Shown: in pieces, positions 1-35,100 of the stretch
How the letters are laid out: every line of letters starts with the position of its first letter
Position numbering within the stretch: the stretch's first letter is position 1
DNA from: Mobula birostris
Taxonomy: Eukaryota
NCBI RefSeq assembly: GCF_030028105.1
Contig: NC_092370.1
Coordinates: 80,248,969-80,312,968 of the forward strand
Length of the DNA: 64,000 nt
Direction of reading: 5' to 3'
The notes under the pieces: generated by a model
What the model saw: only the letters and a program-made list of their open reading frames with translations
What the model was told of the DNA's origin: nothing
The model's database searches: none
Made by a program: the position numbers and the translations under genes

Positions 1-502
1 TTGTAGCCTCACACGACTTCCACATCCATTCCCTTGATGGAGATGGGAATGCAGGGTGTTTTCACCTTCCTGAAGTCTACCACCAACTCCTTTGTCTTAG
101 TGATGTTGAGCTGCAGATGATTCAGCCCACACCACTCAACAAAGTTGTCCACCACTCTTCTTTACTCAAGCTCTTGACCCTGGCTGATACAGCCCACAAC
201 TGCTGAATCATCCGAAAACTTCTGTGGGCGGCAGGACTCCCAATTGTATCTGAAGTCCGAGGTGTAGATGGTGAACAGGAAGGGGGACAGGACAGACTCC
301 AGGGGTGCTCCTGTGCTGCCACCCACAGTGTCTGATACACAGCTCTGCAATCTCACATACTGCGGCTGTCTGGACACTAGTCTGTAATCCAGGACACTAG
401 TGGAGCATCCACCTGCTTCCCCATGAGCTTACTCCTTAGGAAAGCAGAGAATATGATTCTCACAGTGCTGCCTGGCTCATCCAGATGGGTGTAAGCCCAT
501 TG
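1..502 (-). mobile_element. Rex1/Babar-like (non-LTR) reverse transcriptase fragment, decayed
   Basis: Minus-strand translation WAYTHLDEPGSTVRIIF...STGAPLESVLSPFLFTIYTSDF...QKFSDDSAVVGCIS matches the RT motifs GAPQG-xx-LSPxLF and KFxDD; frameshifted. Confidence 0.75.
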
Positions 503-1745
503 GAGTTGGAGGGAGGGAAAGATGTGCTTTATGGTGGGATCCCATTGGAGAGGTTGGAAATAACAGAGAAGTATATGCTGGTTGCAGAATCTAGTGGGGT
601 GAGGACAAGAGTGGTGGTAGGATGGGGTGATGGCAGATGTGCGCGAAATGAAAGAGATGTGGATGAGAACAGCATTGATGGTGGAGGAAGGAAAGCCCCT
701 TTCTTTGAAGAAGGAGGACATTTCATTAGTTCCTGAGAACAAATGCGCTGAGACAGAGGAACTGAGAGAAGGGGATGGCATTTTTACAAGTGACAGGGTG
801 GGAAGAGGTATAGCCCGGATAGCTGTGAGAATCAGTGGATGTATAAACGATATCAGTAGATCAGATGTCTCCAGAGATAGAGACAGGGAGATCGAGAAAA
901 GGGTGGGAGGTGTCGGAAATAGACCAGATAAATTTGAGGGCAGGGGAAAGTTGCAAGTGAAGTGTGAAGTTGTTGAAACTGATGAGCTCATCGTGGGTGC
1001 AGGAAGCAGCACCAATGCAGACGTCAATGTAGCATTGGAAAAGTTGGAATTTGCTACTGGTGTGGGTTTGGAACATAGACTGTTCCACGTAGCCGACAAA
1101 CAGGCAGGCATAGCTGGGACACATGCGCGCGCCCATGGCTACACATTTTGTTTGAAGGAAATGGGAGGAGCCGAAGGAGAAATTATTGAGAGTGAGGACC
1201 AGCTCCTCCAGACTGTGGAAAGTGGTGGTGGAGGGGAATAGGTTGGGCCTGGTGTCTAGAAAGAAGCAGAGAGCTTTAAGGCCCTGTTAGGGATGGAGGT
1301 GTATAGGGACTGGACAAGCATGGTGAATCCACTGTGGTCATCAATTACTTGAACTGTCAGTACTTGCCTCCTCCCACTCGTTTACCATTCCCCATTCCCA
1401 TTTTCCACTCTCACCTCATCTCCTTTCCTGCACATCACCTCCCTCTGGTGCTTCTCTCCCTTCCCTTTCTTCCGTGGTCTTCTACCCTCTCCTATCAGAT
1501 TCCCCCTTCTCCAGCCCCTCATCTCTTTCACCCATCAGCTTCCCAGCTCTTCACCACCCCTCCCCTTCTCCAGGTTTCACCCATCACCTACCACCTTGTA
1601 CTTCTTCCTCCCCTCCCCTTCCTCTGACCACATCTTTTTTTTCCAGTCCTGCTGAAGTGTCTCAGCCCAAAACATCAACCATTGACTCTTTTCCATAGGT
1701 GCTGCCCGGCCTGCTGAGTTCCTCCAGCATTTTGTGTGTGCTCAA
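503..1745 (-). mobile_element. Penelope-like element: RT fragment (503-~1333, minus) with an inverted pyrimidine-rich terminal repeat (~1334-1745, plus)
   Basis: ORF 861..1136 MGARMCPSYACLFVGYVEQ...CYIDVCIG...PALKFIWSISDTSHPFLDL is Penelope-type RT (MGxxxxPxYAxLF, YIDD-like). The adjacent plus-strand tail ends in the hammerhead-like repeat (1644-1740). Confidence 0.75.
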
Positions 1746-5100: not shown

Positions 5101-8100
5101 AATTATAGCTAATTTTATTTATTTTCATCCCCATCTTCCCACCTTTTCCCCATAACTTCTAATCCCCTAATCAAGGACCTATCAGTCTCCGTAGTAAATA
5201 CACCCCGATGACTTGGCTGCCACAGCTCTCTGTGGCAATGAGTTCCATAGATCACCATTCTCTGGCTGAGGAAATTCCTTATTATCTCAGTTTTACATGG
5301 ACATCTTTTATTCTGTGGCTGTTCCCTAGGATTCCAGATTTTCCTACTAATGGAAACATTTTCTCCACATCACACTCTTTAGGCCTTTCAGTATCTGCTG
5401 GGTTACAATGAGATTTCCCCTACATCCTTCTGAACTCCACAGAGTACAGTCCCAGGGACATCAAACATTCCTCATACATTAAAATTTTCATTCCTGTGAT
5501 CATTCCTGAGAAATTCCTCTGAGCCCTCTCCAGGGCCAGCACAACTTTCCTTAGATGCAAGGCCCAAAATTGCTTATGATATTCCAAATGTGGCCTGGCC
5601 ATTGTCATACACAGCCTCAGCAGTACATCCTTGCTTTTGAATCCTAGTCCTCTCCAGAGTCAGGTAACTTCAGACCCAGAATATAACGCCGACCCTTTGG
5701 ATTGGTGTCACTGGTATGAAAACCATATGCTCTATATGCAGGAAATGCTCAACTGGTCAGGGAGCATCTGTCGTGAGCAATAGAAGTGAGGTTTCGAGTT
5801 GACAATCGTTCTTGGCAATTGATTTTATTTCAGATTTACATTGACTGCATACCATATTAGAGTCAAAGAAAAGTGGAGCACAGAAACAGGCTGTTCAGCC
5901 CATCAAGTCCATGCCAAACCACTTAAACAGCCCAGTTCCATCAACGTGCACCGGCACCATAGTCCTCCATATCCCCGCCATCCACATACTTATTCAAACT
6001 TTTCTTAAACATTGAAATTGAGTTCAAATGCACCACTTACGCTGGCAGCTCGTTCCACACTCTCACAAACCTCTGAATGAAGAAATCTCCCCTCATGTTT
6101 CCCTTAAACTTTTCACCCTTAACCCATGACCTCTAATGGTGGTCCCACCCAACCTCAGTAGAAAAAGCCTGCTTGCATTTATCCTACAGTATCTATACCC
6201 CTCATAATTTTTTATACCTCCATCAAATCTCCCCTCAATCTTCTACGTTCAAAGGAATAAAGTGCTAACCTATTCAATCTTTCCTTATAGCTCAAATCCT
6301 CCAGACCCGGCAACATCCTTGTAAATTTTTTCTATACTCTTTCAATCTTATTTACATCTTTCCTGTAGTTAGGTGACCAAAACTGCACACAATATTCCAA
6401 ATTAGACCTTACTATTGCCTTATACAACTTCAGCAAAACAGCCCATCTCCTGTACCCAATACTTTGATTTATTAAGCCAATATACCAAAAGTTTTCTTTA
6501 TGACCCAATCTACCTGTGACAATACTTTCAATGAATTATGGATCTGTTTTCCCAGGTCCCTTTGTTCTACCACACTCCTCAGTGTCCTACCATTCACTGT
6601 GTTAGACCTACCCTGGTTGGTCCTACCAACGTGCAACACTTCGCACTTGTCTGCATTAAGTTCAATCTGCCATTTTTGAGTCCATTTTTCCAGCTCGTCT
6701 GGATCTTGCTGCATGCTCTGATAGTCTTTCTCACTGTTTATTACACCCCCAGTCTTGGTGTCATCTGCAAATTTGCTCAGCCAGTTATCCAGATCATTGA
6801 TATTCAGATCACAAAGCCAATATCTAATCCAATTTACTACCTCATCTTGCATGCCGAGCAACTGAACCTTCTTGATCAACCTCCTATGTGGGACCTTGTC
6901 AAATGCCTTGCTGAAGTCCATGTAGACAACACCACTGCCTTGTCTCATTCTCCTTCTTGGTAACTTCCTCGAAAAACTCCATAAGATTGGTTAGACATGA
7001 CTTCCTACACACAAAGTCCAAATACTTATACATCTAGTCCCTTAGAATATCTTCCATTAACTTTCCCACTACTTATGTCAGGCTCACTGGCCTATAATTT
7101 CCTGGTTTATCTTTCGAGCCCTTCTTAAACAGCGGAACATATCCTCCAATCCTCCGGTATCTCACCTGTTGTTAAGTATGACTTAAATATCTCTGCTAGG
7201 GCCCCAGAAAATTCTGCACGCCTCCCACAGGGTCCAAGGGAACACTTTGTCAGGTCCTGGGGATCTGTCCACCCTAATTTGCCTCAAGTCAGCAAAAACT
7301 TCCTCTTATGTAATCTGTATAGGATACAGCAACATGCTGCTACTTTGCCTCACTTCTACAGACTCTGTGCCTGTCTCCCAGATAAATACACATGCAAAAG
7401 ATGTACTTAAGTCTCCCCCATCTATTTTGGCTCCATGCATGGATTACAATTCTGATCTTCCAGAGCAGTAGCCCCCAACCTCCAGGCCGTGGACCGATAC
7501 CGGGCCGCGAAGCATGCAGGAGTGCAGCGGTAGCCGCAGTGCACCCAGCACATCTTTAAGAAAAAAGCCAAAATAAACAAGTTAATTAATTAGGTGCCAC
7601 CCGGCACGTAAATGTCAGCCCAGATCAGAGGTGATTGCCGATTTCACTTGCTGTACGCGATGTTCACTCCTCTTTCCAGGGCGCTGGAGCCTTCAGCTGT
7701 TCCATTATTTGGTCAAATTAAACGCCAGCCCAGACAGGCTGAAAAGACAGGGCTATCAGGATCGAGGTGACATGTTGAATCTACACAAACTTCTCATAAA
7801 GTATAGGTGCTGCAGTGCTTTCTTTGTAATGACAGTTACGTGCTGGTCCCAGGACAGATCCTCTGACACTTTACAGAGAGAGAAACGTCGATCCTTAATG
7901 CCGAAGAATTTAAAGTTATTTACCCTCTCCACCTCAGTTCCTCTAATGAAGACTGGCTTCTGGGCAGCACCTAATTAATTAGCTTGTTTATTTCGGCTTT
8001 TTCTTAAAGATATGCTGGGTGTGCTCCAGCTACCGCTGCATCCCTGCATGCTTTGCGGCCCGGTACCGGTCCACGGCCCGGAGGTTGGGGACCACTGTTC

Positions 8101-11100: not shown

Positions 11101-14100
11101 GTCTACATTGAGTTTTACAAGGCCTTTGACAAGGTCCCACATGGGATGTTGATCAAGAAGATTCAGTTGCTTAGCATTCAAGATGAGATAGTAAACTGGA
11201 TTAGACATTGGCTTTGTGGGAGAAGCTAGAGAGTGGTAGTAGAGGGTTGCCTCTCTGACTGGAGGCCTGTGACTAGTGGAGTGCCACAGGTATCAGTGCT
11301 GAATCCATTGTTGTTTGTCATCTATATCAATGATCTGGATGATAATGTGGTTAACTGGATCAGCAAATTTGCAGATGACACCAAGATTGAGGGTGAGGTG
11401 GATGGTGAGGAAGGCTATCATGGCTTGAAGAGGGAACTGTATCAGATGGAAAAATGGACTGAAAAATAGCAGATGGAATTTAATGTAGACAAGTGCAAGA
11501 TGTTGCACTTTGGTAGGGCCAACCAAGATAGGTCTTACACAGTGAATGGTAGGGCACTGAGAAGTACTGTAGAACAAAGTGATCTGGGAATACAAGTACA
11601 TAATTCATTGGAAGTGTTGTCACAGGGTCGTTGAGAAAGTTTCTGGCATTTTGTTCTTCATAAGTTAGGATTTTAATCCTAAGGATGTGGAAGATTGAAG
11701 GGAGATTTCGTAGAGGTATACAAATTTATGAGGGGTATATATAAAGTAAATGCAAGCAGGCTTTTTTCACTGAGGTTGGGTGGGACTTCAAGCAGAGATC
11801 GTGGGTTAAGGGTGAAAGGTGAAAAGTTTAAGGGGAACATGAAAGGAAACTTCTTTATCCAAGGGGTCGTTAGAGTGTGGAACAAGACACCAGTGCAAGT
11901 GGTGTATGCGTGCTTAATTTCAACGTTTAAGAGAAGCTTGGATCGGTACATGGATGGCAGGAGATTGGAGGGCTATGGTCACAATGCAGCTCATTGGGAG
12001 TAGGCAGTTTAGGTTATTCAGCACAGACTAGATGGGCTGAAGGGCCTGCCTCTGTGCTGTACTTTTCTATGACTCCATGATTCCATCTCAGTTCTAAAGG
12101 GATATCTTTCTCTTCTGAGGTGATGCCCTCAGATCCTAGATTCTCCTGCTAATGGAAGCATCCTCTATGCATCCACTCTATCCAGGGTTTCGGTTTCAGA
12201 TTTCCACCACCTGCAGAGTTTTGAATTTCACATAAAAGTTGCTGGTGAACACAGCAGGCTAGGCAGCATCTACAGGAAGAGGTACAGTTGACGTTTCAGG
12301 CCAAGACCCTTCATCCTGGCCTGCTGCGTTCGCCAGCATTTTTTATGTGTGTTGCTTGAATTTCCAGCATCTGCAGATTTCCTCGAGTTTGAGTTCTGAA
12401 TTTCATTGGCTTATATTTTATTGGTTCAGTGATCGATAAGATACCTACCCCAAACATAATTTCTAATGGTCACTTATGTTCTTGTCATTTTTGTGGTACT
12501 GCTTTTCTGATAGTGTTTGAACAAAGTTTTTTTCAGCAACAGTCTCTAGCTGAAACTTGTTCTGCACAGACTCTGAGTTCAAATTCCAAAATTGGGGTTT
12601 TCAGTACAAACTTCTTTTGAAATCAATCAGATCAGAAGGGATTGAGAGAGGATTATTAAACTCATTGAGTGCGGCTGGTGTGGAACTTATGGTCTGAAAG
12701 GGATCTGAAGGCAGAATCACTGAACCATACCTTGATAAACCTTTGAGATGCCGTAACCTGCAATGCTTGTGATCTGGATCTGGGAAGTAGGATTAACCTA
12801 AAGTCCATACTTGGCAAGCATGAACACAATGGGCTGAATGGCCTATTCCCATGCGGCAAATTTCAATGATTCTGTGACCCTAAGGTGAAGTTTGCAAAGG
12901 CGACCATTTGAAATATGATCTCCCGTCTTTCCCACAGATGTAAATGCTAAAGGTGTCATCCTTAAAGCTTTTGAACAATATCGCCTTAAGTCTTGCATTA
13001 ATTTTAAGCCTTGGACTGGGGAAGCTAACTACATCTCCGTATTCAAGGGACGTGGGTAAGAGCATGACTTGGTATTCCTCTAAAGACTGGTTCATTTTCT
13101 TCATTCGTTGCTGTTTTATCCATTCAGTTCCTTGGGGTTGATAACTAAGTATGTACAGTACCTTGGATATTGTTCTTAATATATGGTGAGGGTTATCTTC
13201 TGCTTGTTCATGCCATATGGACTTTGCTAGTGAGGAATGTATTAATTACCCTTGGGCACATTATGGAATTGGTTTATTAATGTCATGTGCACTGAGAGAT
13301 AGTGAAAAGCTTGGCTTGCTTACTGATCAATCATTACACAGTGCACTGAGGTAGAGAGGAAGGTAAGACACTGACAATGGAGATTAATGTGTAACAGCTA
13401 CAGAGCAAGTGCAGTGCAGGTCAACAATAAGGTGCAAGACCATAATGAGGTGGAATGTGTGGCCAAGAGTTCAATTTATCATACCAGGGAATCACCTTAT
13501 TGCAGTGGGTTAGAAACTGTCCTTGAGCCTGGTGGTACGTGCTTCCAGACTTTTGTATTTTCTGTCTGATAGAAGAGGATCCTCTTAAGAAAGCAGCCAG
13601 CATATTTAATGACCCCACCCACCGTTAAGGCAGTGAGAAATGCAGACAGATTCCATGGAGTTCCTCCAGTATTTTTCCACACACAAAATACTGGAAGAAC
13701 TCAGCATGGCTGGCAGCATTTGGGAGGGAAACAAACAGTCGACATCTCAGGCCGAACCTGTTCATCAGGTTTCTTTATTTCCCTCCATAGATACTGCCTG
13801 ACCTGCTGAGCTTCTCCAGCATTGTGTGCATGTGTGTGTGCATGTTGCATAAGATTTCCAGCACCTGCAGAATCTCTTCTGCCTCACCTCTCACTGATTG
13901 ACAGTAGCCAGTCACTTCTGCCTATTCTTCTGGTTTGCAATTTCACTGATCATATCACAAGATGGTGAGACCAATGTCAACCTTGCTACCTTACAAACCA
14001 TACAATTCTACAGACCGTTGCCATGATGTGACCCAAACTGCTGCCAATTATACAGCTTGATTCTCTGCCCCACTTCTTTCAAAAAATATTTGACTCATTT

Positions 14101-17100
14101 TCCAAGAGCTTAAGAAAAAGAAGCAAGGGGGGAAATGTGGCCCTGGATCATAGTCCACAAGTCAATAAGATTATAGCTGATCTAATACTCATAGAAGAGG
14201 GCCATTCAGCCTACCACATTGATGATAACCATCAAGTACTTCACTAATTCCCTTTGCCAGCACTTGGCCCATAGGTGTTAGTGCCTGGGTGGTTCAAATG
14301 CTCATCCAGCTGTTTCTTAAATGTTGTGAGAGGACCTGCCCTCATCAGCGTGTTTAAGATTTCAACCATCTTATGGGTAAAGGGAATTAGAACATAGAAT
14401 ACAGAAGAATACAGCACAGGAACAGCACCTTCAGACCGTGATGTTGTTACAAAATGATTACGCAAATGACGCCTTTACATTAATCCTTTCTCCCTGCACA
14501 TGATCCATATCCATCCATTCTCTGCACATTCATGTGTCTATCTAAGAGCCTCTTAAACGCCTCCACCACAACCCTGGCAGGACTCTCCAGGCACCCACCA
14601 TTCTTCAGATGAAAAAACTTGCTCAGCACAACTTCCTTGAACTTCCCCAACCTCACATTAATTGCATCCCCTCTGGTCTTAAAGACATGAAGTTTTTGGT
14701 TTCTCCCTCAGATCCCCTCTAAACCTCACAAATCCATGTCCTCTGGTTTGGCATGGTTGCCTTCATCAGTCGGGGTGTTGGGCCACTATGTTGCAGTTGT
14801 ACAAGATGTGTTAGTGCGACTACGCTTGGAGTATTGAGCGCAGTTTTGGTCGATCTCTTATAGGAAAGCATTAAATTGGAAAGAATGCAGAGAAAATTCA
14901 TAAGGGTGCTGCCAGGACTCAAGGGCCTGAGGCATAGATAGAGGCTGGGCAGGATGGGATGTTACTCCTTTGAATATAAGAGATTGAGGGGTGACCTTAA
15001 GGAGATGTCTAAAATCAAGAGGGGTATATCTAGGGTGAATGCACAATCACCCTATATATGCTCCTCAAGAAAGAGAAATATACTCCTCAGGAAATAGAAT
15101 TGATAATTAGAGGGAATAGATTTGAGATGAGAGGGGAAAACATTTAAAAGAGACTGGAGGGACAACTTCTTCACCCAGGGACGGTACATATATGGAACGA
15201 GCTATCAGAGAAAGTAGTTGAGGCAGTGCTATAAAAAACATTTAAAATACAGTACATTTGGATAGGTGAATGAATAGGAAAATTTGAGAAGGATATAGGC
15301 CAAACACAGGCAAATGGGATTTAACTTGCTTCGCACATGGCTGGCATGGAGAAGTTGGGCCAAAGGCCTATTTTCATGCTTTATTAATCTACATGGAAAG
15401 AACAAACATTTCCTTTCCTCAAGCAGCCCGCAAAATTCTCCTTCTCTAATACCAACCCAATTCTCTATTATCTGACAATGCCTTTAGCTTAGTCCTCTCG
15501 CAGTTGTTTAAGAACCAGCTGCAGGTTTGACGTGAATCTCTCTGTGTGACAGGTGTTGGTCATCGGTGGGCAATCAGCAGGCTGGCAAGCAGCAGCTTTC
15601 AATCGGAGAGAGGTGTGAAAGAATTGCAACCATTGAACACGAGTTTCTCCATGCGCTGGGATTCTGGCATGAGCAGTCGAGACCCGATCGCGATGACTAC
15701 GTCCAAATAATATGGGACAGGATTGAACATGGTAAAGTCAGGTGACATCCTCCAAACAGGTGTCCCAGAGCCAGGTTTGGACACTTAGTCAAGTGTTTAA
15801 TATGAAGATGAGAAAGATGAGGGCTGGCCCTTTTGCCCAAATAATTCATGCTGTCCAAGATGCCCATCCAATCTAGTCCCATTTCGCCCATACTGTAATC
15901 TTCTGAATCTTTCCAATCCATGTACCTGTCCATGTGTCTATACTGGTAAAAAAAGAGTTACTCAAGCGAGCATAGACACAAGGGATTGCAGACTCCGGAA
16001 CCTGGATCAAGAAACAAACTGTTGGAGGAACTCAACAGTTCAAGCAACACCTGCGTTGACACTTCACGTTAAGACCCTGCATTAGGACTGAGAATGCAGG
16101 GGGAGGTCGCTGGTATAGAGTAGTGAGGGGAAGGGGTGAGGCATGGGATGGCGTGTGACATGGAGACAGGTTAGGAGGATTTATTGGTGGTGGGGTGGTG
16201 AGGGAGGTGCGGAGGGAGTGTTAGAGGCTGGAAGGTAATTGGCCAGTCAACAAAGGGCTGATGGAATCCGATGAGTAAAAATGGCAGATGGAAGTGGTTT
16301 GGAACAGTTCCCTTCAATACCCCTTCCCATCTGCCCATCATACCTTCAACATCACCTTCCTCACACCAGATGCCAGCATCTGCAGCCTTCACATCACCTC
16401 TCAGCCTCCGTCTCTACCTCCTCCTGCCCATCAACCCCCTCCTCACCTAGATCCATCGATCACCTGCTAGCCCCTACTTCCCCTCTCCTCCTCACCTCTT
16501 CATGCTGATGTAGAGTCCTGATGAAGAGTCTTGACCCAAAATTAGTCTTGCCTCTGCAGATGCTGCTCTCTAGCAGTTCATTCTTCATCCAAACTAATCT
16601 CACTTTCCAGAACTGAGCTGGTGGTATTGCAAGGTATTCAAGTGCACATTCTAGTATTATTTAAATGTGCTACCGCCTTTTCAGGAGAGTGAGTTCCAAA
16701 CTTCTACTCTCTAGATGAAGTAATGGTCCTTATCTTCCCTCTAATACTACCAACTATATATGCCCCTTACTTTGGCATCTTTCAATGCTCTACCTCAGAG
16801 ACTGGTGCTGGTTGAGACATTGAATAGATTCAATGATGAGATAGGCTTCTGAGCCACTCACCAACAAAGGACACTGGGCGAGGAAGTAGAGTTGAGGCTA
16901 AGATCATTTGATCCACAAGATTAGCCAGTGATGGAGAAGGTTCAAGGAATTGTTGGAGTAACTCAGCAGGTCAGGCGGCACCTGTAGAGGGAAAAAGACA
17001 ATCAATGTTTCAGATCGAGACTGGACTGAAATTGGGAGAGGAGAGAGAGTTAGCATAAAAAGTTTGCAGAGGATGGGTAGGGCAAGAGCTGGCAAGCCAT

Positions 17101-20100
17101 AGCTGGATCCAGATATAATGGGCAGACTGACAGATGAGCAAAGGAAGGATGGACAGAGTGACAAAGGCCCCTTATAGAATTAAAGCTTGGCAAACCTAGA
17201 CCAGGGCCATTTGGTCCAGCATGGCCAGCACCTAATTCCAGCATTCTCTTAGAAGTTTCTTGATGAGCTTTTGTTTCAATTTATTCAGGTAAGGAACACA
17301 ATTTCAATAAGTACGACGACAAGGTGACCATTTCTCAGAACATACCGTATGACTATACCTCCGTGATGCACTACAGCTCAACTGCTTTCAACAACGGCTC
17401 AGAACCAACCATTGTCACCAAGATTGCTGAGTTCAGTAAGGTGATTGGACAGCGCATGGAGTTCAGCGATTATGATCTCCAAAAAGTCAACCGACTCTAT
17501 AACTGCAGTGAGTACCAGAGTTTTGTGGGCAGGGTGAACACATGTGAAGATTAGTGAGGGTGGGGGCACAAGAGACCACAGACGCTGGGACCCAGAGGGA
17601 TTCACAAGCTGCTGGAGAAACTCAGCATCTGTGGAGGGAAATAGACAGTCAACATTTTGGGTCTTGGATCCAGATGAAAGCATCTTGACCCCAAACATCA
17701 AGTTAATATCCCAACACAGATGCTACCTGACCCACTGAGCTCCACTAGTAGCTTCTGTGTTGCTGGAGATATCGTGTGTGTTGGGAAAGATAGAGTCACA
17801 GGGACATACCGTACAACACAGCCCTTCACTAATCCCAAGTTTAAAAATTCTCTCTGTATTTGTAAACCATGTATATATGTTGTAACTGGGTTACCTGTCT
17901 GGACACGCCCCTTTGCTGACTGCTCCTGTGGCTCCTCTCACAGACCCCTGAATAAAGGGGATTGTGCCACTGCTCCTCCTCTGAGTCCAGGGCAGATACT
18001 CAGCAGGGACGAGACCCATTTTACTGTTAATAAAAGCCTTTCAGTATTTACTCTACTTCCAGTCTTTTGGAGTAATTGATAGTGCATCAGTGTTTCTATC
18101 AGCTCTCCCGCCCACCCAGATTCTTCCCCTCACCTACACAGCTGGAGCAATTTACAGTGGCCAGTTAACCCCGCTAAAGGACAGGAGGATCGGTAAGTCA
18201 GTTGGTCACTGTGTGTAGGTATAGGTGAGTGGTAAGATCTTAGCGCAGAGGGATTTATTGAAAATACATGGAGGATAAAATTAAATGGGATTTGGTCTGG
18301 GTTAGTGTTCAATAGCCTGCATCAGTTCAGTGGGCCAAAGTACCTGTTTCCTTGCTGTAGAAGGACAGCTTCTACCTCACTGTTATAAGACCAGTAAAAT
18401 GAGATGTACTTTTGAGCTCACAGTCTACCTCACATGATCTTAATACTTTATTGTCTGCCTGCACTGCACTTCCTCTGTAGCGCTTTATTCTGCATCCTGT
18501 TGTTGTTTTCCCTCCATGCACTGACATGATGAAATGATCTGTATGGATGGTATGCAAAACAAAGTTTTTGCTGCACCTCAGTCCAAGTGAGAATAATAAA
18601 CCAACCTATCTTTCTCTGATTCTCAGTGTAGAGTGTCTCTGCACTTTATTAGATAGACCTGCTCACCTGCTTGTTAATGCAAATTTCTAGTCAGCCAATC
18701 GTGTGACAGCAACTCAGTGCATAAAAGCATGCAAGTTCAGTTGTTGTTCAGGCCAAGCGTTGGAATGGGGTGGGGGAAGTAATGTAACTGGTGCTAGTTT
18801 GGGTATCTCAAGAACTGCTGATATCCTGGGATTTTCATGCCTTGCAATCTCTAGACTTTACAAAGCATGACAGAAAAACAAAAACAAAATCATTTAGTGA
18901 GCAGCAGTTCTATGGGTGAAAGCATGTTGTTAATGAGAGAGGTCCGAGGAGAATGACCAGCCTGGTTCAAGCTGACAGAAAGCCAACAAGTGACCACACT
19001 TTACGATAGTGGTGTGTAGCAGAGCATCTCTGAACAGACATGTTGAACCTTGAAGTGAATGGGCCTATAGCAGCTGAAGGCCACACCAGCTTCCACTTCT
19101 GTACCTTACAATACGGCCACTGAGTAGATATTGTCGGGCTTCATCAGCTTAGAATTGGTGACTTGGGGCTCACTCTCTGCTGTGTGGATTTGCTTGGGAA
19201 TTGGAGACTTGCGATCAGAGAGTCACATTGCATGGAAACAGGCTACTCTGCCCATCATGTTCATGCTGATCTATCTGCATGAATCCCACCTTCCAGCTGC
19301 TGGCTTGTAACCTACCTTATCTAGATAATTCAAGTGCTTGTCCAGATGCTTCTTAAGCACCATCAGTAACTCCTTCCAAGGCACTATCCAGCAGTGTGTT
19401 CCAGGTACTCACCACCCTCTGTGTGAGAAAGGTGTGAAAGGTTTATAGGGATATTGTCAAATTGGTTTATTATTGTCACATGTACTGAGATACAGTAAAA
19501 AAAAACCTTTTTTGCATGTCACCCACACAGATCATTTCACCACATCAGTGCATTAAGGTAGTACAAGGGAAGGCAAAGTATAGAATAAATTGGATGAGCT
19601 TAGGCTGGTATGACTGGGTTAGGCTGAAGGGCCTTTTTCAGTGTTGTATAACTCTATGACTCTAAGTTTCTGTGAAAGGAGAAGCAGAGTTAAACTTTCT
19701 GAGTGAAGACCCTTTGTAGGAAATCTATCGATGGACTCAGACTTGAAGCATTAACTCTGTTTCCCTCTCCACAGATACTGTCATCTTGACCACAAAACAC
19801 AGGAGCAGAATTAGGCCACTTGCCTTTCGATTTTAGCTGATTTATTTTCCCTCTCACCCATTCTCCTGCCTTCTCCCTGCGATCTTTGATGCCCTTACAA
19901 ATCAAGAAACTATCAACCTCAGCTATCAACCCAATGACTTGGCCTCCACAGCCTTCTGTGGAAATGAATTCCACAGATTCACCATCTTCTGGATAAAGAA
20001 ATTCATCTCTGTTCAAAAGGGATGACCTTCTATTCTGAGGGTGTGCTCTCTGGCCCTAGACTCTCCCGCGTTTGGAAACATCCGCTCCATGTCCACTCTA

Positions 20101-23100
20101 TCAGGCCCTGCAATATTTGGTAGATTTCAATGAGATCCACTCTTAGTCTTGTAATCTCCACTGAGTACAGATCCAGGGCCATCAAACACTCCTCATGTGT
20201 TAACCCTTTGATTTCCTAGATAATTTTTGTGAACTTACGCTGTATCCTTTCCGATGCCAACCCATTCTTTCTTAAATATAGAGCCCCAAACTGTTCATAT
20301 TACTTCCAATGTGGTCTAACTAATGCTTATTACAGCCTCAAATCCTTGCATTTATATTCTAGGCCTCTTGAAATGAGTGGCCAAGTGGTTAAGGCATTGG
20401 ACTAGCAACCTGAAGGTCGTGAGTTCGAGCCGCAGCCAAGGCAACGTGTTGTGTCCTTGAGAAAGGCATTTAATCACACATTGCTCTGCGACGACACTGG
20501 TGCCAAGCTGTATGGGCCCTAATGCCCTTCCCTTGGACAACATTGGTGTAGTGGAGAGGGGAGACTTGCTGCATGGGCAACTGCTGGTCTTCCATACAAC
20601 CTTGCCCAGGCCTGCGCCCTGGAGAGTGAAGACTTCCCAGGCGCAGATCCATGGTCTCGCAAGACTAACGGATGAAATGAATGTTAACAATTCACTTGCC
20701 TTCCTCGCTACTGACTCAACCCACAAGTTAACCTTTAGGGAATCCTGCACTAGGACCTTCAAATCCCCTTGCACCTCCAATTTCTGAATTTACTGTCTGT
20801 TTAGAAAATAGTCCCGTCCTTTATTTCATCTACCAAAGTGCACTTTCCTATACAGTATTTCATTTGTCACTTCTTTATCCATTCCGCTAAAATGTCCAAG
20901 TCCTTCTGCAGACCCCCTGCTTCCTTGGCACTATCAGTCCCTCCACCAACCTTTGTAACATTCGCAAACCTGCTGAGAGTTTCAAATATTTTCTGCTTTT
21001 AGTTACATAAATGCAAATTCTTCTTGTCAAGGTCAAAGGCAAACTCTCAGCTTTCTTCCGTCTTGTTTCTGGTTAGCCACCTCGCTCAGCTTTTTGGACA
21101 GTTGCGACTTTGAACTTGAAAATATCTGCGGCATGATACAGGATCAAAAAGACGACGCAGATTGGCAGCGAGTCTCCCAGGCCCCGGGTGGGCCTTCAAC
21201 AGACTTCACCAGCATGGGCAACTGTAAAGGTAAACACTTCCATTTCCAGCACAATTTAACGATACAGTTTAAATTTCACTGTTGTGTACTTGACAGCGTC
21301 CGCACAAGTTCAAGAGCATCTCCCAAACAAGGCAATCTCTTATTGCCTAGGACAAAGCGGCTGGTACATGGGAACACTGATCCCTGTAGAGATCCATCCT
21401 GACTTGGAAATTTGTCACCAGTTCTTCATTGTTGGTGGATCTAAATCCTGGAACTTCCCCTCCTGTGGCACGGTGAGATCACCTTAACCTGAATTAAAGT
21501 GGTTCAAGAATGTGGCTCACCAGCGCCAACTCATGGGCATTGAGAGATGGGGAATAAATGTTGTTCTTGTCAAGGATGCCCATGGCCCAGAAATGAACAA
21601 ATGATAAGTACTTCAAAACCTGAATCAGAATCTGATTTATTACCACTTATACTTATGTGAAGTGAAATTTGTTGTTGTATAGTGCAAAGACAAAATTATA
21701 ATTTATAGCAAGTAAATAGATAATGCAAAACAAAATAATAAGAAGCCACCTTCTTATTCTGGCTTCTGTCCCCTTCCTTTTCAGTCCTGATGAAGGGTCT
21801 TGGCCTGAAATGCCAACTGTTTATTCCCTTCCATAGATGCTGCCTGATATGTTGAATTTTTTCAGCATTTTGCACATGTTGCTCAAGATTTCCAGCACCT
21901 GCAGAATAATTTGTGTTTAGGAATAATGAGTTAGTGTTCATGGGATCATGAACCATTCAGAAGTCCGATGGCAGAGGGGAAAAAGTTGTTTCTGGATCAT
22001 TGGGTGTGGATCTTCAGGTGTATGTAGCTCCTCGCTGATAGTAGTAATGAGAAGAGGGCATGTCTCAGACGGAGAGACTCTTTAATGGTGGGTTCTGCCT
22101 TCCTGGAACACAGCCTCTTGACCATGTCCTTGATGGTGGGGAATGCTGTTCCTGCAATGGAACTGGCTGAGTCTGCACCCACTGCAGCCTCTTTCGGTCC
22201 TGTACATTGGAGCCTACATACCAGGCTGTGATGCAACTAGTCAGAATGCTCTCCACCACACCGACTCTACTCAAACTCCTGATCAATGCCATGTTTCCTC
22301 AGGGACAATGCACCAACAGATGGCTACAGTAGCCTGAAATGCCAGGAGGGATGGATGCTGGGGAGCAGTATTTTCTATTCCTGGGATGCACACACCAACT
22401 TGCAAACCAGTCACATTAGCTGAATATCAGCTAATACATTTGTGTGGGGAAAGGCTTTGGTCTTCTCAAAATGAGACTCTGTTTGTCATGTAAGGCTCCA
22501 CCTGTTTGCACAGGCTGGTGAAGGTGCTCCCACTGTGCCACAGGAGGGCAAGTTCCAGGATTTAGATCCCCCAACGTGGATGAACTGATGATAAATTTCC
22601 AAGTCAGGATGATCCTCCATGTGGAGGGAATGCTGAAGGATCTGTGTCCCATGTACTAGGTGTGCAGATTTTCATAGCAGACACAAGTTGGTCAATTGCA
22701 GATAGCATGCGGTGCCTGAGGAAGTGCAGCAGGGAGACCCGGAACCTCAGTGGTATGAGGAGGAGGAGACAACACACCGGAATGCAAATTCCGCAGTTGG
22801 GAGCAGCACACAGTCTGCTGGAGGTACTTGATAGGTCAATGGGTCGAGTAGCATCTGGTAGGGAAAAGGAACTGGGACCCAGATTGTCAACAGTTTCTTG
22901 CCTTCCACAGATGCAGACTGTGTGAAGAAGCATGAGGACTGGGTAGAAGAGGTGTGCTTCCAGTGGCACGTCCCTGGTCACCGTATGTGTGCGGGGGGCA
23001 AGGATTGTCTATGCAGGACATGAGAGGCTCTGTGATAGAGAGTCTCCGATAGCAGGAACATTAAAATTATGAGCCCCAGAGCAAGTCAGGTGGCCCTCCA

Positions 23101-26100
23101 CTGTAGTCCCAAAGCAAACTAGATGGTTCCCTACTTACGTGCCAAAGCAAGGCCTCCACTGTAGTCATCAAGGAAGCCAAGTAGCCCTTTACTCAAGCCC
23201 CAAAGCAAGCTAGGTGGTCCTTCTTATCACAGGACACCACTGGTCAATGTGAAGCCCAGTAATCAGTCACATGGTGCTTTGTGCTTCGCCTGCACTGATT
23301 ATTTGTTGTAACTGAATGAATACCTGAATTGATTTTCTGAAATGGTTCACTGGTCTGCTAGAGACATTGTGGGGCATGGAGCTCATTTGTGCATTGTTCG
23401 CTTTGTACATATGAAGGAGACAATGGAGTTCTAATGGATTACCTGGTTCCATCATGGCATTTGGGATGTGCTGTTGTAGGGACCCTACCTGAAACCTCAA
23501 CGATTCCTTTCCCCCAGAGACACTGCTCAACCTGCTGAGTTCTTCCAGCAGATTGGTGCATAATGGAACTGGAAGTGGAATTGAAATTAGTTCATTATTA
23601 TTGCCTGTACTAAGGTACAGTGAAAAGATAATCCTGCATTACTGCTCATACACATCAATTCATTGCACAGTGCATTATGGTAGAACAAGATAATGTTGAT
23701 AATGCTGGCTGCTTTACTGAGGCAGTGAGAAGTCCAGACAGAGTCCATGGGAGAAAATCTCATATATCTGAGCTTGGTGCCATGGCAACTTTTCGCGTCT
23801 TGTTTTAGCAATTGCCATTGTGTCTGTCTGTCTGTGTGAGCAGGTGGTGGGAGGGAAGAAAAGGATTTGTTTTGCAGTTGTTGTTTCATTGCTTATGTCC
23901 TGTGTTGTTCCGCTGAGCATCGTGGAAACACTGCGTTGGCCCCAGAGTGCGAGTCAACACTTAGCGAGCTGCCCACAGCACATCCATAGGCGTGTTGTAC
24001 ATGTGATAAATAAATCTGAATCTGACCATTGGAGCAACCCTCTCCAAAGCTGTCTCAATTTATTTTAGCTAATTCCATTACTGTTTTATTGGCGTGCCAA
24101 ATGGACATTAGTATGAAATACAGCAACTGCTTAATCCATTGAAAACAGACAACCCCCAATTTCATAACACACACACTTCACAAATGAGGCTTCTTCTGTG
24201 TGGCAGGTAATGGATACTTCATGCACTTCAGCACCAGCTCAGGCCCGGTGGGACAGAAGGCCTTCTTGGAAAGCAGGATATTTTACCCAAAGCGTGGCTT
24301 CCAATGCCTCCAATTCTACTCCTTCAACAGTGGAAGCGACAAAGACGAGCTAAACATTTGGGTCAGAGTTTTCAACGAAGAAAATCCCAATGGTACTTTA
24401 ACTAAAGTTAGAGGAGTAGAAGGTAGGTTATTGAACAACAAAGAATACATGAGTTTCAACAGTAATAAGATCATTGTCATGTAAATAATAACAATAATGG
24501 ACACAGTCAGTGGCCATTTGTTTTAGTACACCTGTATAACTGCTCGTTAATGAAAATATATGATCACACCAATCACATGGCAGCAACTCAACACGTAAAA
24601 GCATACAGCTATGCTTTGGGAAAAATGGCAGATGGAATCATATGCAGACGAGTGCAAGGTATTGGACTTCAGTATGACCAACCAGGGTAGGTTTTACACA
24701 GTGAACAGTAGGACACAGAGGAGTGTGGTAGAACAAAGGGATCTGGAAATACAGCTCCATAATTCATTGAAAGTGGCATCACAGGTTGATAGGGTCGTAA
24801 AGAAAGCCTTTGGCAGATTGACCTTCATAAATCAAAGTATTGAGTGCAGGAGATGGGATGTTATGTTGAAGTTATACAAGACGTTTGTAGGGCCTAATTT
24901 GGAGTATTGTGTGCCGTTTTGGTCACCTACCTACAGAAAAGATGTAAACAAGATGCACAGAGAAAATTTACAAGGATCTTGCCAAGTCCGGAGGACCTGA
25001 GTTATAAGGAAACATTGAATAGATTAGAACTTTATTCCTTGGAACATAGGAGAATGAGTGGAGATTTGATGGAGGTGTACAAAATTATAAGGAGTATAGA
25101 TAGGTTAAATGCAAGCAGGATTTTTCCACCGAGGTTGGGTGGGACAACAACCAGAGGTCATGGGTTAAGGATGAAAGGTGAAAAGTTATAGGAGAACACG
25201 AAGGGAAACTTCTTCACTCAAAGGATCGTGAGAGTGTGGAATGAGCTGCAGCACAAATAGTGTATACAAGCTCAATTTCAACATTTAAGAGAAGTTTGGA
25301 CAGGTACATGGATGGCAGGGGTACGTAGGGCAATAGCCCCGAAGCAGATCGATGGGAGCAGGCAGTTTAAATGGTTCAACATGGACTAGAGGGGCCAAAG
25401 AGCCTGTTTTTGTGCTGTGCTTTTCTATGACTCTATATGGTCAAGAGGTTAAATTGTTTTTCAGACTAGACATCATAATTGGAAGGAAATGTGATCTAAG
25501 TGACCTTGACCATGAAATGATTGTTGCTGCTAGATGGGATGCTTTGAGTATCTCAGAAACTGCTGATCTGCTGGGGATTTTCATGGACAACAGCCCTTAC
25601 CCTAAAGTTTGCAGAGAATGCTATGAAAAACAAAAAAAAACATCCAGTGAGTGGCAGTTCTGTGGGTAAAAACGCCTTGTTAATGAGAGAGATCAAAGAA
25701 GAATGGCCAGAATAGTTCAAGCTGACAGGAACACAGCAACTCAAATGACCACATGTTATAACAGTGATATGCAGTGAATGCACAACACTTCATTCAGAGA
25801 TGTTCTTTGAGATGGGCTACAGCAGCAGAAAACTATGAACATACTCTCAGTGGCCACTTTATTAGGTACAGGCAGCCTTACTATGCACCATCAAATGATC
25901 GCTCATTGATAAGGGTATAACTTGTGAGAAAAGATATCCGGAAAGCCTACTGATTAGAAATACGACTTGTATCCAGAAATCCCATTGATATGAGTTGAAC
26001 TTTATTGGTGGCATTTGGGAAAACTAAATTCAAATCGGTGAATGAATGTGTTGTAAAGAACAATCACTGGTAAATTGGTTTATTAATGTCACATGTACCA

Positions 26101-29100: not shown

Positions 29101-32100
29101 GACCTCTGATTGTAGTCCCACCCAACCACTGTGTAAAAAGCCTTCTTGCATTTTCCCTATCTATACCCCTCATAATTTTGTATACCTCTATCAAATCTCC
29201 TCTCAATCTTCTACGTTCCAAGGAATAAAGTCCTAACCTATTTAATCTTTCCTTATAACCCAGGTCCTCCAGACCCAGCAACATCCTTGTAAATGTTCTC
29301 TGTACTCTTTCTACCTTATTTATATCTTTCCTGTAGGTAGGTGACCAAAACTGTACACAATACTCCAAACTAGACCTCACCAATGTCTTGTACAACTTCA
29401 GCGTAACATCCCAACTCCTGTATTCAATACCTTGATTTATGAAGGTCAATGTGCCAAAAGTTTTATTTGTGACCTGATCTACCCGTGACACCACTTTCAA
29501 TGAATTATGGATCTATGTTCCCAGTTTTCTTTGTTCTACCACACTCTTCAGTGCCCTACCATTCACTGTGTAGACTTACCCTGATTGGTCCTAATGAAGT
29601 GCAACACTTCGCACTTGTCTGCATTAAATTCCATCTGCCATCTTTCAGCCCATTTTCCCAGCCAATACAGATCCCTCTACAAACGACGATAGCCTTCCTT
29701 ACTGTCCACTACACCCCCTATCTTAGTGTCATCTGCAAATTTGCTGATCCAGTTAACCACATTATCCTGCAGATTGTTGATATAGATGACAAACAACAAT
29801 GGACCCAACACCGATCCCTGCGGCACACCTCTAGTCACAGCCCTCCCGTCAGAGAAGCAACCCTCTACTACCACTCTCTGGCTTCTCCCACAAAGCCAAT
29901 GCCTAATCCAATTTATAACTTCATCTTTAATGCTGAGCGACTCAACCTTCTTGACCAACCTACCATATGGGAACTTGTAAAAGGTATCTGAGCGTTTTGC
30001 TTTAATTGGTATATAGACAAAAAATTCTGGAAGTACTCAGCAAATTTCAAGAAGTATATTGTATACATTAAATGTACATTGTACCTATTGAAGCCTATTG
30101 AAAACTGGGCAGCATCTGAAACTAGAAGTAGAGTTAACATTTCAAGTTCACAATCCTCACTATCCTCATCATCTGGGAAGAGGTACAGGATCATGAAGAC
30201 CCACACTCAATGATTTAGGAACAGTTTCTTCCTTTCAGCCAACAGATTTCTGAATGACCCACAAACCCATGAACACTACCTCCCTATTCCTCTTTTGCAA
30301 TCATTTTTAAATTGTAACTTGCAGTAATTTTTGCACTGTACTGTGCCACAAAACAAATTTCGTGACATAAATTTCATGATATACACATCTAATTCTAATT
30401 CTGATTTTGATTGAGAAAATTTGTTGGATCAGGCGTGTAGAAGTTATCGAATGTGATCTGGAGTGCAGGCTACTGCATAGAGCAGTGCCCTGCAATAAAT
30501 TTCTAAGCCCGTATATGCATCTGCCAGCCACTTGCCTCTTCTATGGGCTGTAAAAGGCCATTTAGTACATGTACATGAAGTGTGCAAAGCTGCAGCCCCT
30601 TTTCTCTTATCTAAGGGGGCTTCTCCTTGCCTTCTGGCTGCATTTTATCCCCATCTTCTTCATGTTTAGTTATCCAGTACAGAGGGAGGCAAGGGGGAAG
30701 GAGGACATCCTCGTCAACTTGCTCCAGGGGGTTGGCCGAGTTAGCTATCAATGGGTCCTGAAGACAGGCAGCTGAGGGCTCCACCTGCGCTGACTGTCTG
30801 GCCATTTTGCGAGGGTTTGTCCATGCCCAAGTAACCTTGGAGAAAAAAACATGCACTGTCCAAAGATGCAATAGAGGTGTTCTGGGACTGTTGGGTACTA
30901 CAGGGGATGAATGGCACCCTCAGTGAGGATGGGACTATTTTAATATAGTTCATGTTAGCTATCGCTGTTGTCTCCAATGTTTGTTGTAGAGTTGGAATAA
31001 ATATATTTTTGAAAAAAACAAATCTGATTGTATAAGCTATGATGTGTGCTGTTCTCTGATCTTTCAGATGCATCACATCTTGTAGCCAGTCAACCTACAC
31101 CATCAGCTCCCTACCATTCCACCACAAACAAGCTCACACCCCATCCTATCACCAACTTGACCAGCAAGCCAGCAACTGACAAACCGGTGACAAATATCCC
31201 AGAATTATGCATTGGTTTTCAATGTCAAAATGAAGGAGTCTGCATTGAACTGAATGGAGAGCCTGTGTGCAGGTAATTGCTTTTGTTACTGTACAGTTAG
31301 TTGGCTGGTGGCGTAGTGGCATCAGTGCCGGACTTCAGAGCAAAGGCTTTTGAGTTCAAATCCAGCCGGCTCCCTTGAACACTTTCCATCCATCCTGGGT
31401 TGAGCGTCGAGCTAGCAACTCGGCCTTGTAAAAATCAGAAAGCCTGCCAAAAAAACGCTATCATGCCGGCATTCCGATGACTCCACTCGGAGTTGAGGGC
31501 TTTTTTCTTTATTGTAGTGTTCCAATGACACTGATAATTTTGATTGCCATTAACTGGAAAGTACTTTATTTACGCATATGATATGTTTAGTGACTTCAGG
31601 ATGCTTTACAAACAATCAAATGCACCATGATGTACCTGTAAATTGATAACTTAGTTTATTATTGCCATGTATATGAGGTACAATGGAAAAACTTGGGTTT
31701 GCATGCCACCAATACAAATTATTTCACAACATCAGTACAAGCTGAATGCAGAATAAATTGTTACAGTTACAGAGAAAGTGCAGTACAGGCAGACAATGCA
31801 GTGCAAGGTCATAATGAGGTAGACTGTAAAGTCAAGAGTCCATTTTACTGTATTAGATAATCATTCAACAATTTTATGGCAGAGGGGTAGACGCTGTCCA
31901 TAAGACCATAAGTCCACAAGACATAGGAGTAGAATTAGGCCAATCAGCCCATCGAGTCTGCTCCGCCATTCCATCATGTCTGATCCCGGATCCCACACCA
32001 ACCCATACACCTGCCTTCTTGCCATATCCTTTGATGCTCTGACCGACCAGGAAACAGAAACTGTCAACATCCACCTTAAATATACCCACAGACTTGGCCT

Positions 32101-35100
32101 CCACCACAGCATTTCACAGATTCACTACCCTCTGGCTAAAAAAATCCTCCTTACCTCTGTCCTAAGATGTTGCTCCTCAATTTTGAGGCTGTGTCCTCTG
32201 GTTCTAGATACCCTCACCATAGAAAACATCCTCTCCACATCCACCCTATCTAGTCCTTTCAACATTCCGTAGGTTTCAAAGTGATTCCCCCGCATTCTTC
32301 TAAATTCCAGTGAGTACAGGCACATTGCTACCAAATGCTCCTCATATGTTAACCCCTTCGTTCCTGCCCTTGAGCCTGGTGGTATGTGTCTTCAGGATTT
32401 TAAATCTTCTGCCAGTGAGAGGATGGAGAAGAGAAAATGTCCAGGGTGGGTGGGATCTTTAGTTATGTTGGTTACTTTACTGAATGAGCAAGAAGTGTAG
32501 AGTCCATGGAGGGGAGCATGATGAAGGATCTCAGCCTGAAGTGTCATCTATTCATTTCTCCACAGATGCTGCGTGATCCACTGAGTACCTCCAGCATTTT
32601 GTGTGTGCGTTGCTCCAGATAGAAACATAGAAACATAGAAAATAGGTGCAGGAGTAGGCCGTTTGGCCCATCGAGCCTGCACCACCATTCAGTATGATCA
32701 TGGCTGATCATCCAACTCAGATGTCCTGTATATATGCAGTCTTTCTTGTGTCTCACAGAACATAGAACAATACAGCACAGTACAGCTCCTTCAGCCCACA
32801 ATGTTGTGCTGACCTTTTAACCTGTTCTAAGATCTAACCCTTCTGTTATAAGGATTACCCCTCAATAATAATGATTAGTTAGGCACACAGAGAATCTGTA
32901 TTTCTTGACAAGTGCCTTTATTGGCCCAGTTCACAAGCATGCAAATTTACATCTGTGTGCACACCTATTGGGTTTCTCTATCCCTCTATGAACAGTCAAA
33001 GAATAGAAAAGGTAATAAGCCAAGTAAAAGAGTCTAGGGGTTCCTTGTGGTGCCAGTGTAATTTCCATGTGTCTGAAGTGGAGTCATTCTTACTCCTTTC
33101 CTTATCAGACCAATCTATGCAACAGACACACACAATGCTGGAGGAATTCAGCAGGCCAGGCAGAACCTATGAAAAAGATTAAACGGTCAATGTTTCAACC
33201 CAAAACCCTTCATCCAGACCTGCAGATTTTGTCGTGTTTCAGATCAATCTATGATGTTTCAGTTTTGTTGGTTTAAGGTCATCTGACTGACCTGTGTCAG
33301 ATTCCCATTGGAAGTAGCCCAAGGCTACAAGCAATATTACTTTATAGCCTTTCCTCTAGCCTTGTGTCTAAGGTGACTTCCTTTGCTATTTTTTCTAACT
33401 CAGCCTGGTTCAAACTAGTCTAACCAGTTCACCCAAACACTGGGCTCAGCTGTTTCTTCTACAAATTTACATTTTACATAATAAAGAGCTTCTCATCTGA
33501 GAATGGTCTCAGGTTTAGCAGATCATTAGCAGAAATTACTTGTGTCCACGTTCAACTGTCTGATTAAGTTATCCCTGAGTAAGAAGCAGTTCACCAAACA
33601 GTTCACAAAATGGTGGCTGCAAGGACAGTTTCACAGAATGGCCACCTCCATTCCTGCCACTACACAGCAAGAACAAAGACTTTTGTTTCTGTCTGTTTCC
33701 ACTGCCCTTGCCTCATTCCTGTTCACTTATTTATAGATTTTCGTTCTTTCTGACCAATCCCTCCCTTCCAGATAGCCCTCCATTTTTCTTTCATCTACAT
33801 GCTTACCTAAGAGCCTCTTAAATGTCCCTAATGTACCTACTTCTTCCACCACCCTGGCAGTATTTTCCACACACCCACCGCTCCCTGTGTAATAAAAAAA
33901 CAAACAAACAAACAAACATCCTCCCCATACTTTCCTCCAATCATCTTAAAATCACACCCCCTCATGTTAGCCACTTCCACCTAGGGGAAAAAGCCTCTTG
34001 CTATCCACTCTATCTATGCATCTTGTCATCTTATACACCTCTATCAAGTCACTTTTCATCCTCCTTTGCTCCAAAGAAAAATGCCCGAGCTCACTCAACC
34101 TATCCTCATAAGGCATGCTCTCTAATCCAATCAGCATCCTGATAAATCTCCTCTAAAACGATACTAATTGGACAAGTACTCCATGGAGAGGAGACTGTTT
34201 TCCATGCTGTGCTGAGAGAGTTCATAACATGATGTCCACAGCCCTCTGAAGTTTCTTGCAGTCTCAGCAGAGCAGCTGCCATACCAGGTTGGGATATATC
34301 CAGATAGGATGATCTCTATGGTGTCTCAGTAAAAACTAGTGAGAGTCAAGGTGGAAATGTGAATTTCTTTAGCTTTCTAAGGAAGTAAAGGCACTGTTAA
34401 GCTTTCTTAGCCATGAGGTATATTAAATACGTTGACCAATTGCTACACTACAAGCTACCACAATGAAAATTTGTCATTTTGGTGAGATTTAAATATTGGC
34501 CCAGATCACAGGTGGAATTCCTCTTTGGGTAATTCTAAAGGATCTTTTTACCTGAGGGAGCAAATTGATAGGGTAGTTAACAAGGCATATGGTGTGTTGG
34601 CCTTCGTGAGTTGAAGGTTTGAGTTGAAGTAATGTTGCAGCTCTTTTAAACTCTGCTTAGGGCACATGGAGTATTGTATTCAGTTCTGGTTGCCTCATTA
34701 TAGGAAGGATGTAGAAGCTTTAGACAGAGTGCAAAGGAGATTTACCAGGATGCTGCCTGGAATAGAGGGCATGTCCATTGAGGAAAGGTTGAGCAAGCTA
34801 GGACTTCTCTCTTTGGAGTAAAGGAGTATGAGAGAAGACTTGATAGAAGTGTATGAGATCATAAGAGAAATAGAGTGGATATCAGTACTCTTTTACCAGG
34901 ATAGCAATGAATAATATGAAATGATTATCAGGTGATTGGACTCCGCCACGGACAGTCCCAAATCCGCCTGCGAAAGGAGGAGGGTTGGACATCGGCTAGC
35001 AACCCCATATCATAAAAACCCAGTGCTACAGAGATGCCAACAGAAGCTCCAAAGACTTCATTACTCAGAGAGGAAGGATCTTCGAAGATGGGCTACATCT

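Follow-up and report, generated by a model that had tools for sequence, protein, structure and literature searches.

CpG-decayed minimal hammerhead motifs as probable relics of a Neptune-type Penelope-like element in Mobula birostris

The window, by which we mean the whole 64-kb stretch of Mobula birostris DNA analysed here, contains a dispersed repeat with a decayed hammerhead ribozyme motif. We consider it very likely that these repeats derive from the pseudo-LTR end of a Neptune-type Penelope-like element (PLE), as short insertions that are truncated on their 5' side and have undergone CpG decay, where the type is assigned by linker and domain layout and the linker is also common to Nematis. 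The master of the family, with its minimal hammerhead, is predicted to cleave only as a dimer. The copies in the window are, as judged from their sequence, most likely inert passengers.

The earlier note on this DNA had listed six copies and supposed a high-copy family. All six were found at the positions and strands given for them, and the family proved to be larger than that list. A first round of nhmmer, with a profile made from the listed copies, yielded 29 matches at E<=0.05 (1 in the reversed-window control), and a second round yielded 31 at E<=0.01 (0 in the control). An extended model of about 149 columns, which includes the 3' extension, gave 33 matches at 24 loci; these occupy 2,818 bp, or 4.4% of the window, which corresponds to one locus per 2.7 kb. 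The 3' ends of copies were taken from local alignment to this model. The shared repeat unit consists of a 38-nt hammerhead region followed by about 65 nt 3' of the cut site, or by about 105-110 nt if an optional tail of about 40 nt is counted. Two of the listed copies are visibly incomplete: an inversion junction truncates the copy at 12285-12315(-), so that its stem I 5' arm and C3/U4 are missing, and part of the 3' half of the 16514 copy is gone. Coordinates are collected in Table 1. As an additional observation, a pyrimidine run ending in AG, followed by ATG, lies just 3' of the hammerhead (21820-21850 and equivalent positions) and resembles a splice acceptor. This stretch could lead to exonisation of sense intronic copies, or it may be the mark of an intron in the PLE's 5' UTR.

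Table 1. Features of the repeat family and of the associated reverse transcriptase fragment (window coordinates).
Feature	Position	Strand	Remark
Focal decayed minimal type I hammerhead	21782..21819	+	5 differences from the CpG-corrected master, 4 at CpG positions
Focal stem I 5' arm	21782-21786	+	
Focal CUGAUGA	21787-21793	+	
Focal extra A	21794	+	
Focal stem II hairpin	21795-21806	+	
Focal GAAA	21807-21810	+	
Focal mini helix III and cleavage triplet	21811-21814	+	U16.1 changed
Focal stem I 3' arm	21815-21819	+	
Remainder of pseudo-LTR end common to the family	21820..21882	+	
Optional PLE tail of focal copy, ~40 nt	21883..21923	+	
Short remnant of upstream pyrimidine-rich segment, as before the 1644 copy	21749..21781	+	z 4.3; 0/200 block shuffles reached the score
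Broken, inverted PLE reverse transcriptase fragment (RT core to thumb/linker)	512..1321	-	About 70% identity to ray proteins
Presumed 3' UTR and pseudo-LTR with decayed hammerhead (1644-1681)	1345..1741	+	5' limit approximate
Solo copy with tail	2324..2447	-	
Solo copy	5734..5802	-	Strongly decayed
Solo copy with tail	15965..16091	-	
Solo copy in meprin intron	16514..16567	+	G12 changed, 3' part deleted
Solo copy	16948..17022	-	
Solo copy	19739..19781	+	Short
Solo copy	23469..23555	+	
Copy in two same-strand pieces	30015..30150	-	Probably one copy with an insertion
Solo copy	32517..32611	+	
Solo copy	33119..33221	-	
Solo copy with tail	51708..51807	+	Without hammerhead part
Solo copy, second subfamily	55796..55891	+	Sister of 12322(-); G8 changed
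Solo copy with tail	59407..59550	+	
Solo copy	63874..63970	-	A6, G8, G12 changed
Head-to-head pair	12225..12396		12322-12225(-) without tail, 12315-12396(+) with tail
Head-to-head pair	13676..13880		Tail on + arm
Head-to-head pair	17557..17765		Tail on - arm
Head-to-head pair	22787..22916		Partial tail on - arm
Head-to-head pair	52691..52816		No tail recognised
Head-to-head pair	52921..53065		No tail recognised
Head-to-head pair	62071..62265		Tail on + arm
Head-to-head pair	62890..63050		Tail on - arm

The majority consensus of 25 window copies, corrected for CpG decay, is a complete minimal type I hammerhead. It consists of a 5-bp stem I, CUGAUGA, an extra A, a 4-bp stem II, GAAA, an ACGU palindrome and a GUC triplet. 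Both stems are paired, and the master has the G10.1-C11.1 pair, the extra nucleotide after A9 and the palindromic 15.1-16.1. With both core and stems complete, the parse proposed in the earlier note was correct; relative to its consensus, the stem II pyrimidines become C and N7 becomes U once four CpGs are restored. At these four positions, the column counts of the 25 copies show the mutually exclusive TG/CA pattern that is left by a decayed CpG. CpG-type transitions had already been remarked upon, and the counts bear this out: among 91 CpG dinucleotide instances, only 8 are intact, while 70 carry a single transition and 4 a double one. Differences from the master occupy 90 of 185 cells at CpG positions versus 96 of 528 at other positions. 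Three of the four master CpGs fall on C11.1-G12, C15.2-G16.2 and C17-G1.1.

Independent support for the 3' half of the motif comes from the contigs of four public runs, which were aligned over 450-1800. The four DNA loose-end rows each comprise 1,165-1,367 contigs, with an agreement of 0.57-0.59. Among seven loose-end consensus rows at 1690/1692, two have an intact 3' half, and the other five differ at CpG positions only. These contig rows cover the 3' half of the hammerhead, and the CUGAUGA half rests on the window copies. The repeat is also contained in contigs that were guessed to be RNA, which may be DNA; as contigs, they do not reveal transcript ends, and we draw nothing about expression from them.

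It had been suggested that every copy carries at least one change in its core or cleavage site and is of doubtful activity. This holds for all 13 copies that cover the 12 core positions, as none of them has an intact core, and a strict descriptor found no intact motif in the entire window. The core does not exhibit excess conservation either: non-CpG differences number 29/186 in the core, 63/311 in the stems and 153/937 downstream. A non-CpG core that is no better kept than the downstream sequence is the pattern that neutral relics would show.

The predicted folds of single window copies are not better than those of shuffled sequences. For the master monomer and for the motifs of two related loci introduced below (L001 and L018), our in-script folding predicts that a self-paired, non-catalytic hairpin is preferred. 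The best predicted monomer fold pairs core G5-G8 with the CGUC segment (L001:3578-3613, L018:3122-3157 and the master), and this hairpin, which has no bearing on activity, is possibly a mere consequence of the core sequence. In Rfam searches, the window copies did not match a hammerhead at either gathering or E-value thresholds. However, Rfam also overlooks the intact motifs in 6 of 6 control loci, and its negative result is therefore uninformative.

Covariation within the window is limited to one pair that alternates between U-G and U-A (10 versus 6). Two isolated double changes are explained by deletion or by CpG decay. The earlier note had read the TAGTC/GACTA arms of the 55796 copy as compensatory, but a 2-nt deletion explains them better: in the alignment to the sister copy 12322(-), this deletion brings an A into register, which creates an apparent terminal T-A pair.

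We turn next to covariation across families, which is where the stem covariation called for in the earlier note is present (among stem-selected rows), with little of it in the window. An alignment of ray and shark proteins retrieved 66 metagenome loci with 26-61% identity in the best segment. In these related PLE loci, the strict descriptor found 12 motifs, versus 1 in 20 shuffled sets. Where a locus reaches the end of the endonuclease, a motif lies within 320 nt in 13 of 22 cases, and in 4 of the 9 loci that lack one, the downstream sequence is shorter than 100 nt. A covariance model trained on 10 related-locus motifs and 2 window copies matched the 66 loci 27 times, where 10 of these matches are training sequences: 21 are sense and downstream of the ORF match, 1 is sense and upstream, and 5 are antisense, all of the latter upstream of the ORF match. 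In L001, for example, an inverted copy is followed by an RT-linker-EN ORF and then by a sense copy 139 nt downstream. Across families, the hammerhead core hardly varies, while changes in the stems are paired. Of the stem cells, 84% are paired, with 30 double-sided changes (0/500 shuffles as high; slid controls 24-50%), although the paired-cell figure is inflated because the rows were selected with a descriptor that requires stems. A search with the core only recovered further stem-bearing motifs, plus unrelated matches. In one locus, L010:2750-2922 is a long, near-perfect inverted repeat with weak matches to miRNA families in Rfam that lie below the gathering score. No intact motif emerged when metagenome, viral and prokaryote contigs were scanned by pattern.

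These data bear on the idea that the likeness to a hammerhead arose by chance within an ordinary repeat. Such an origin would fit the lack of an Rfam match, the unremarkable folding of single copies and the scarcity of covariation within the family. However, Rfam is blind to intact motifs as well, and the same core, with covarying stems, occurs at the same position in divergent PLE families. We assign next to no probability to a chance resemblance, which is already largely refuted.

The repeat is directly linked to a PLE reverse transcriptase (RT) at one locus. The best homologues of the RT fragment at 512-1321(-) are ray and shark proteins with up to 71% identity (28 matches; also with tblastn), and the fragment is joined head-to-head to about 400 plus-strand nucleotides that end in the 1644 hammerhead copy. 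This junction is not an artefact of the assembly, because contigs of a related organism span it (X5 record 32, with 3 differences, and X22 record 21). In one further contig, the pseudo-LTR end is likewise joined to RT sequence. Longer homologues of the fragment extend through a C-x3/4-C-x2-C linker to a GIY-YIG domain; a scan of 12 homologues detected this domain in 4, of which 1 exceeded the curated cut-off. A CX2-5CxxC linker between RT and endonuclease is present in P0004, P0005 and the L001 ORF. The window itself contains no GIY-YIG endonuclease and no full-length PLE ORF between two pseudo-LTRs; the latter arrangement was encountered in distant relatives such as L001. A candidate remnant of the endonuclease's last codons at about 1340-1400, where the + arm starts, is not significant, and we therefore infer the continuity from endonuclease through 3' UTR to hammerhead in the window family. 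Coding sequence is attached at 1 of the 24 loci only. When the upstream sequences of the other copies were compared with the segment 1345-1643, 1 of 23 scored above z 4; thus, the copies probably represent a mixture of several subfamilies, and that any individual copy is linked to the RT ORF is presumptive. The translated 3' UTR/hammerhead frame, used as a query, found nothing beyond one unrelated repeat protein (P0029), and by eye no target-site duplication was recognised around the 512-1741 insertion. A LINE-type RT fragment adjoins this insertion at window positions 1-430 (-).

The arrangement of neighbouring copies provides further evidence. All 8 adjacent opposite-strand pairs within 100 nt are head-to-head; random placement gives 0.6 on average, and 0 of 20,000 placements reach 8. 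A tail is found on one arm in 6 of these 8 pairs (in one case partial) and never on both arms. This geometry and the one-sided tail match published hallmarks of PLEs, which, in the available parts of PMC8557442 and PMC3846280, include a neighbour that is inverted and 5'-truncated, head-to-head order and a tail of 30-40 nt on one side. Short inverted, tail-like remnants lie upstream of solo copies at 33222-33245 and 55533-55560 (-), which suggests further, more truncated head-to-head pairs. By family position, the 3' ends fall at 96-103 (11/33), 127-149 (11/33), 88-91 (5) and 60-82 (6), while the 5' ends are scattered over positions 0-68, with upstream remnants that vary. The cut site (position 33) is spanned by 22 of the 33 matches and is the 3' end of none of them. 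Since copies run through the cut site and do not end there, the template appears to have been uncut RNA.

The earlier note had called the family retrozyme-like, and a non-LTR retrozyme would consist of tandem units of 150-450 bp that are cut by the hammerhead into circular RNAs, which then reinsert. A type I hammerhead and dispersed monomers would be expected of such an element, and the available part of bioRxiv 10.64898/2026.07.22.740005 reports retrozymes derived from PLE pseudo-LTRs in one chondrichthyan genome. However, there is no tandem array with the motif in the window (Tandem Repeats Finder gave 4 rows, with periods of 19-24). Close neighbours are inverted rather than direct, so a cis dimer is not formable at any window locus, and the copy ends avoid the cut site. 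Moreover, the motif is minimal, whereas retrozymes carry canonical hammerheads according to the portion of PMC7229834 at hand; the loop 1-2 contacts and helix III loop of a canonical hammerhead are absent from the window master. Given also the direct link to a PLE RT, the label does not fit, and we view a retrozyme as very improbable. The Penelope-like alternative that the same note offered is the right one, in view of the RT link, the pair geometry and the related PLEs with the same fold after their ORF.

Published work on Poseidon and Penelope allows the likely course of events for a PLE to be outlined. Target DNA would be nicked by the RT/GIY-YIG protein of the element, and reverse transcription of uncut RNA would begin internally at two sites, one about 65 nt and the other about 105-110 nt 3' of the position of ribozyme cleavage, which would generate the two classes of 3' ends, without and with the tail. 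Synthesis would usually stop early and would often add an inverted second copy. After insertion, methylation-driven CpG decay at C11.1-G12, C15.2-G16.2 and C17-G1.1 would inactivate the ribozyme, and any role of cleavage would lie with RNA from intact master elements elsewhere. Lunse et al. reportedly described the cleavage of PLE hammerheads as dimers.

Most copies might instead stem from a non-autonomous, SINE-like element that consists of the pseudo-LTR only, still carries the minimal hammerhead and makes use of the PLE protein in trans. This would account for the 23 of 24 loci without coding sequence. It would also agree with the summed contig depth, which is about 10-fold or more higher over the pseudo-LTR end than in every RT bin, where such depth is not a copy number and depends on likeness to the queried copy. 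PLE cis-sequences can indeed be mobilised in trans, as described in the available part of PMC3846280. However, the 5' ends and upstream remnants are variable and not fixed, and heavy 5' truncation to a single terminal repeat is a normal outcome for PLEs according to the accessible parts of PMC8557442 and bioRxiv 10.64898/2026.07.22.740005. We judge such an element to be distinctly improbable, and continue to favor truncated insertions of the PLE itself.

The window also includes host genes, with meprin beta exons on the + strand from about 4.6 to 31.3 kb, and a LYRIC/MTDH-like first exon, also on +, at about 53497-53907. The earlier note had pointed to sense copies inside MEP1B and MTDH introns. 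The 16514 and 21782 copies are indeed in sense orientation within meprin introns, and the 55796 copy is in sense orientation downstream of MTDH exon 1. Because a scan of 67 stop-free plus-strand frames downstream did not reveal MTDH exon 2, the location of 55796 in intron 1 is presumed. A special meaning of this orientation is not supported: there are 8 sense versus 9 antisense copies in the meprin span and 4 versus 3 after MTDH exon 1, so the decayed intronic copies have no strand bias. Other features of the region are a CpG island over the MTDH-like first exon (53000-55500; CpG o/e of 0.6-0.8 versus 0.2 around it), a decayed LTR retrotransposon of the Gypsy type with PNMA-like gag, RT and integrase matches (37486-41558, +), and Tc1/mariner transposase fragments (DDE_3, Sleeping Beauty HTH; 60156-61118, -). 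Related repeats bearing LINE RT occur at 5851-7597, 10459-12078, 24620-25441, 28834-29984 and 44361-49077, some of them in meprin introns.

A far bolder scenario deserves mention, to which we give only a slim chance. If the window is typical, the genome would hold hundreds of thousands of hammerhead-bearing PLE ends, and young, intact sense copies in introns might cleave host pre-mRNAs as trans-dimers or with the aid of the PLE protein. In that case, the CpGs at G12, at helix III and at the cut site would serve as a built-in decay switch, and head-to-head pairs would form Alu-like intronic hairpins, which would affect editing and back-splicing. A family of such high copy number would make it easier to test for selection against intact sense intronic ribozymes.

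A hammerhead in a PLE pseudo-LTR is an arrangement published in 2014 by Cervera and De la Pena, and the window family is a new example of it. Our literature search, which covered few subscription papers, found no description of this elasmobranch PLE hammerhead family. According to the available part of PMC4209133, minimal hammerheads in PLE pseudo-LTRs occur in Neptune elements of fishes and a coral, with thousands of dispersed solo motifs, and these minimal motifs showed no cleavage as monomers and weak cleavage as dimers. The window motif resembles those minimal hammerheads in being type I, with an extra nucleotide between 9 and 10.1, a G10.1-C11.1 pair, a palindromic 15.2-16.2 and no helix III loop. 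The elements are also alike in that motifs are mostly single, truncated and dispersed, with some inverted pairs. In contrast to the Schistosoma motif described there, whose stem II has 7-8 bp, the window's stem II has 4 bp and a 4-nt loop. Compared with the systems in the accessible portion of that work, the density of relics in the window is very high, and no elasmobranch is named in its text or in two of its supplements.

At the protein level, the part of PMC8557442 available to us describes Neptune-clade PLEs as having an RT, a Zn-finger linker and, at the C terminus, GIY-YIG. The RT, linker and GIY-YIG of the homologues found here correspond to this Neptune/Nematis layout; unlike the elements described there, the family has no full-length copy in the window. 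Non-LTR retrozymes, as far as the available parts of PMC7229834 and bioRxiv 10.64898/2026.07.22.740005 describe them, share with the family a type I hammerhead and an origin from PLE pseudo-LTRs. However, they form tandem units, contain canonical ribozymes and are expressed as circles, none of which was seen for the window copies.

The comparison that most directly concerns mechanism is with PAc, a Poseidon element of Anolis (PMC11167929, Frangieh et al. 2024). Its protein nicks the target and initiates at two internal positions, which mark the limits of the tail; the template is mainly uncut RNA, and the ribozyme cleaves only with the protein. PAc belongs to a different PLE clade, and its start lies in an AC-rich stem-loop within the ORF, whereas in the window family the first 3'-end class lies in a stretch that is GU-rich on the sense strand. 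CpG decay in the window family falls on catalytic positions. As in PAc, two RT start sites downstream of the hammerhead would define the tail and uncut RNA would serve as template, and the window family thereby offers genomic support, from a second PLE clade, for two internal start sites and for copying through an uncut ribozyme.
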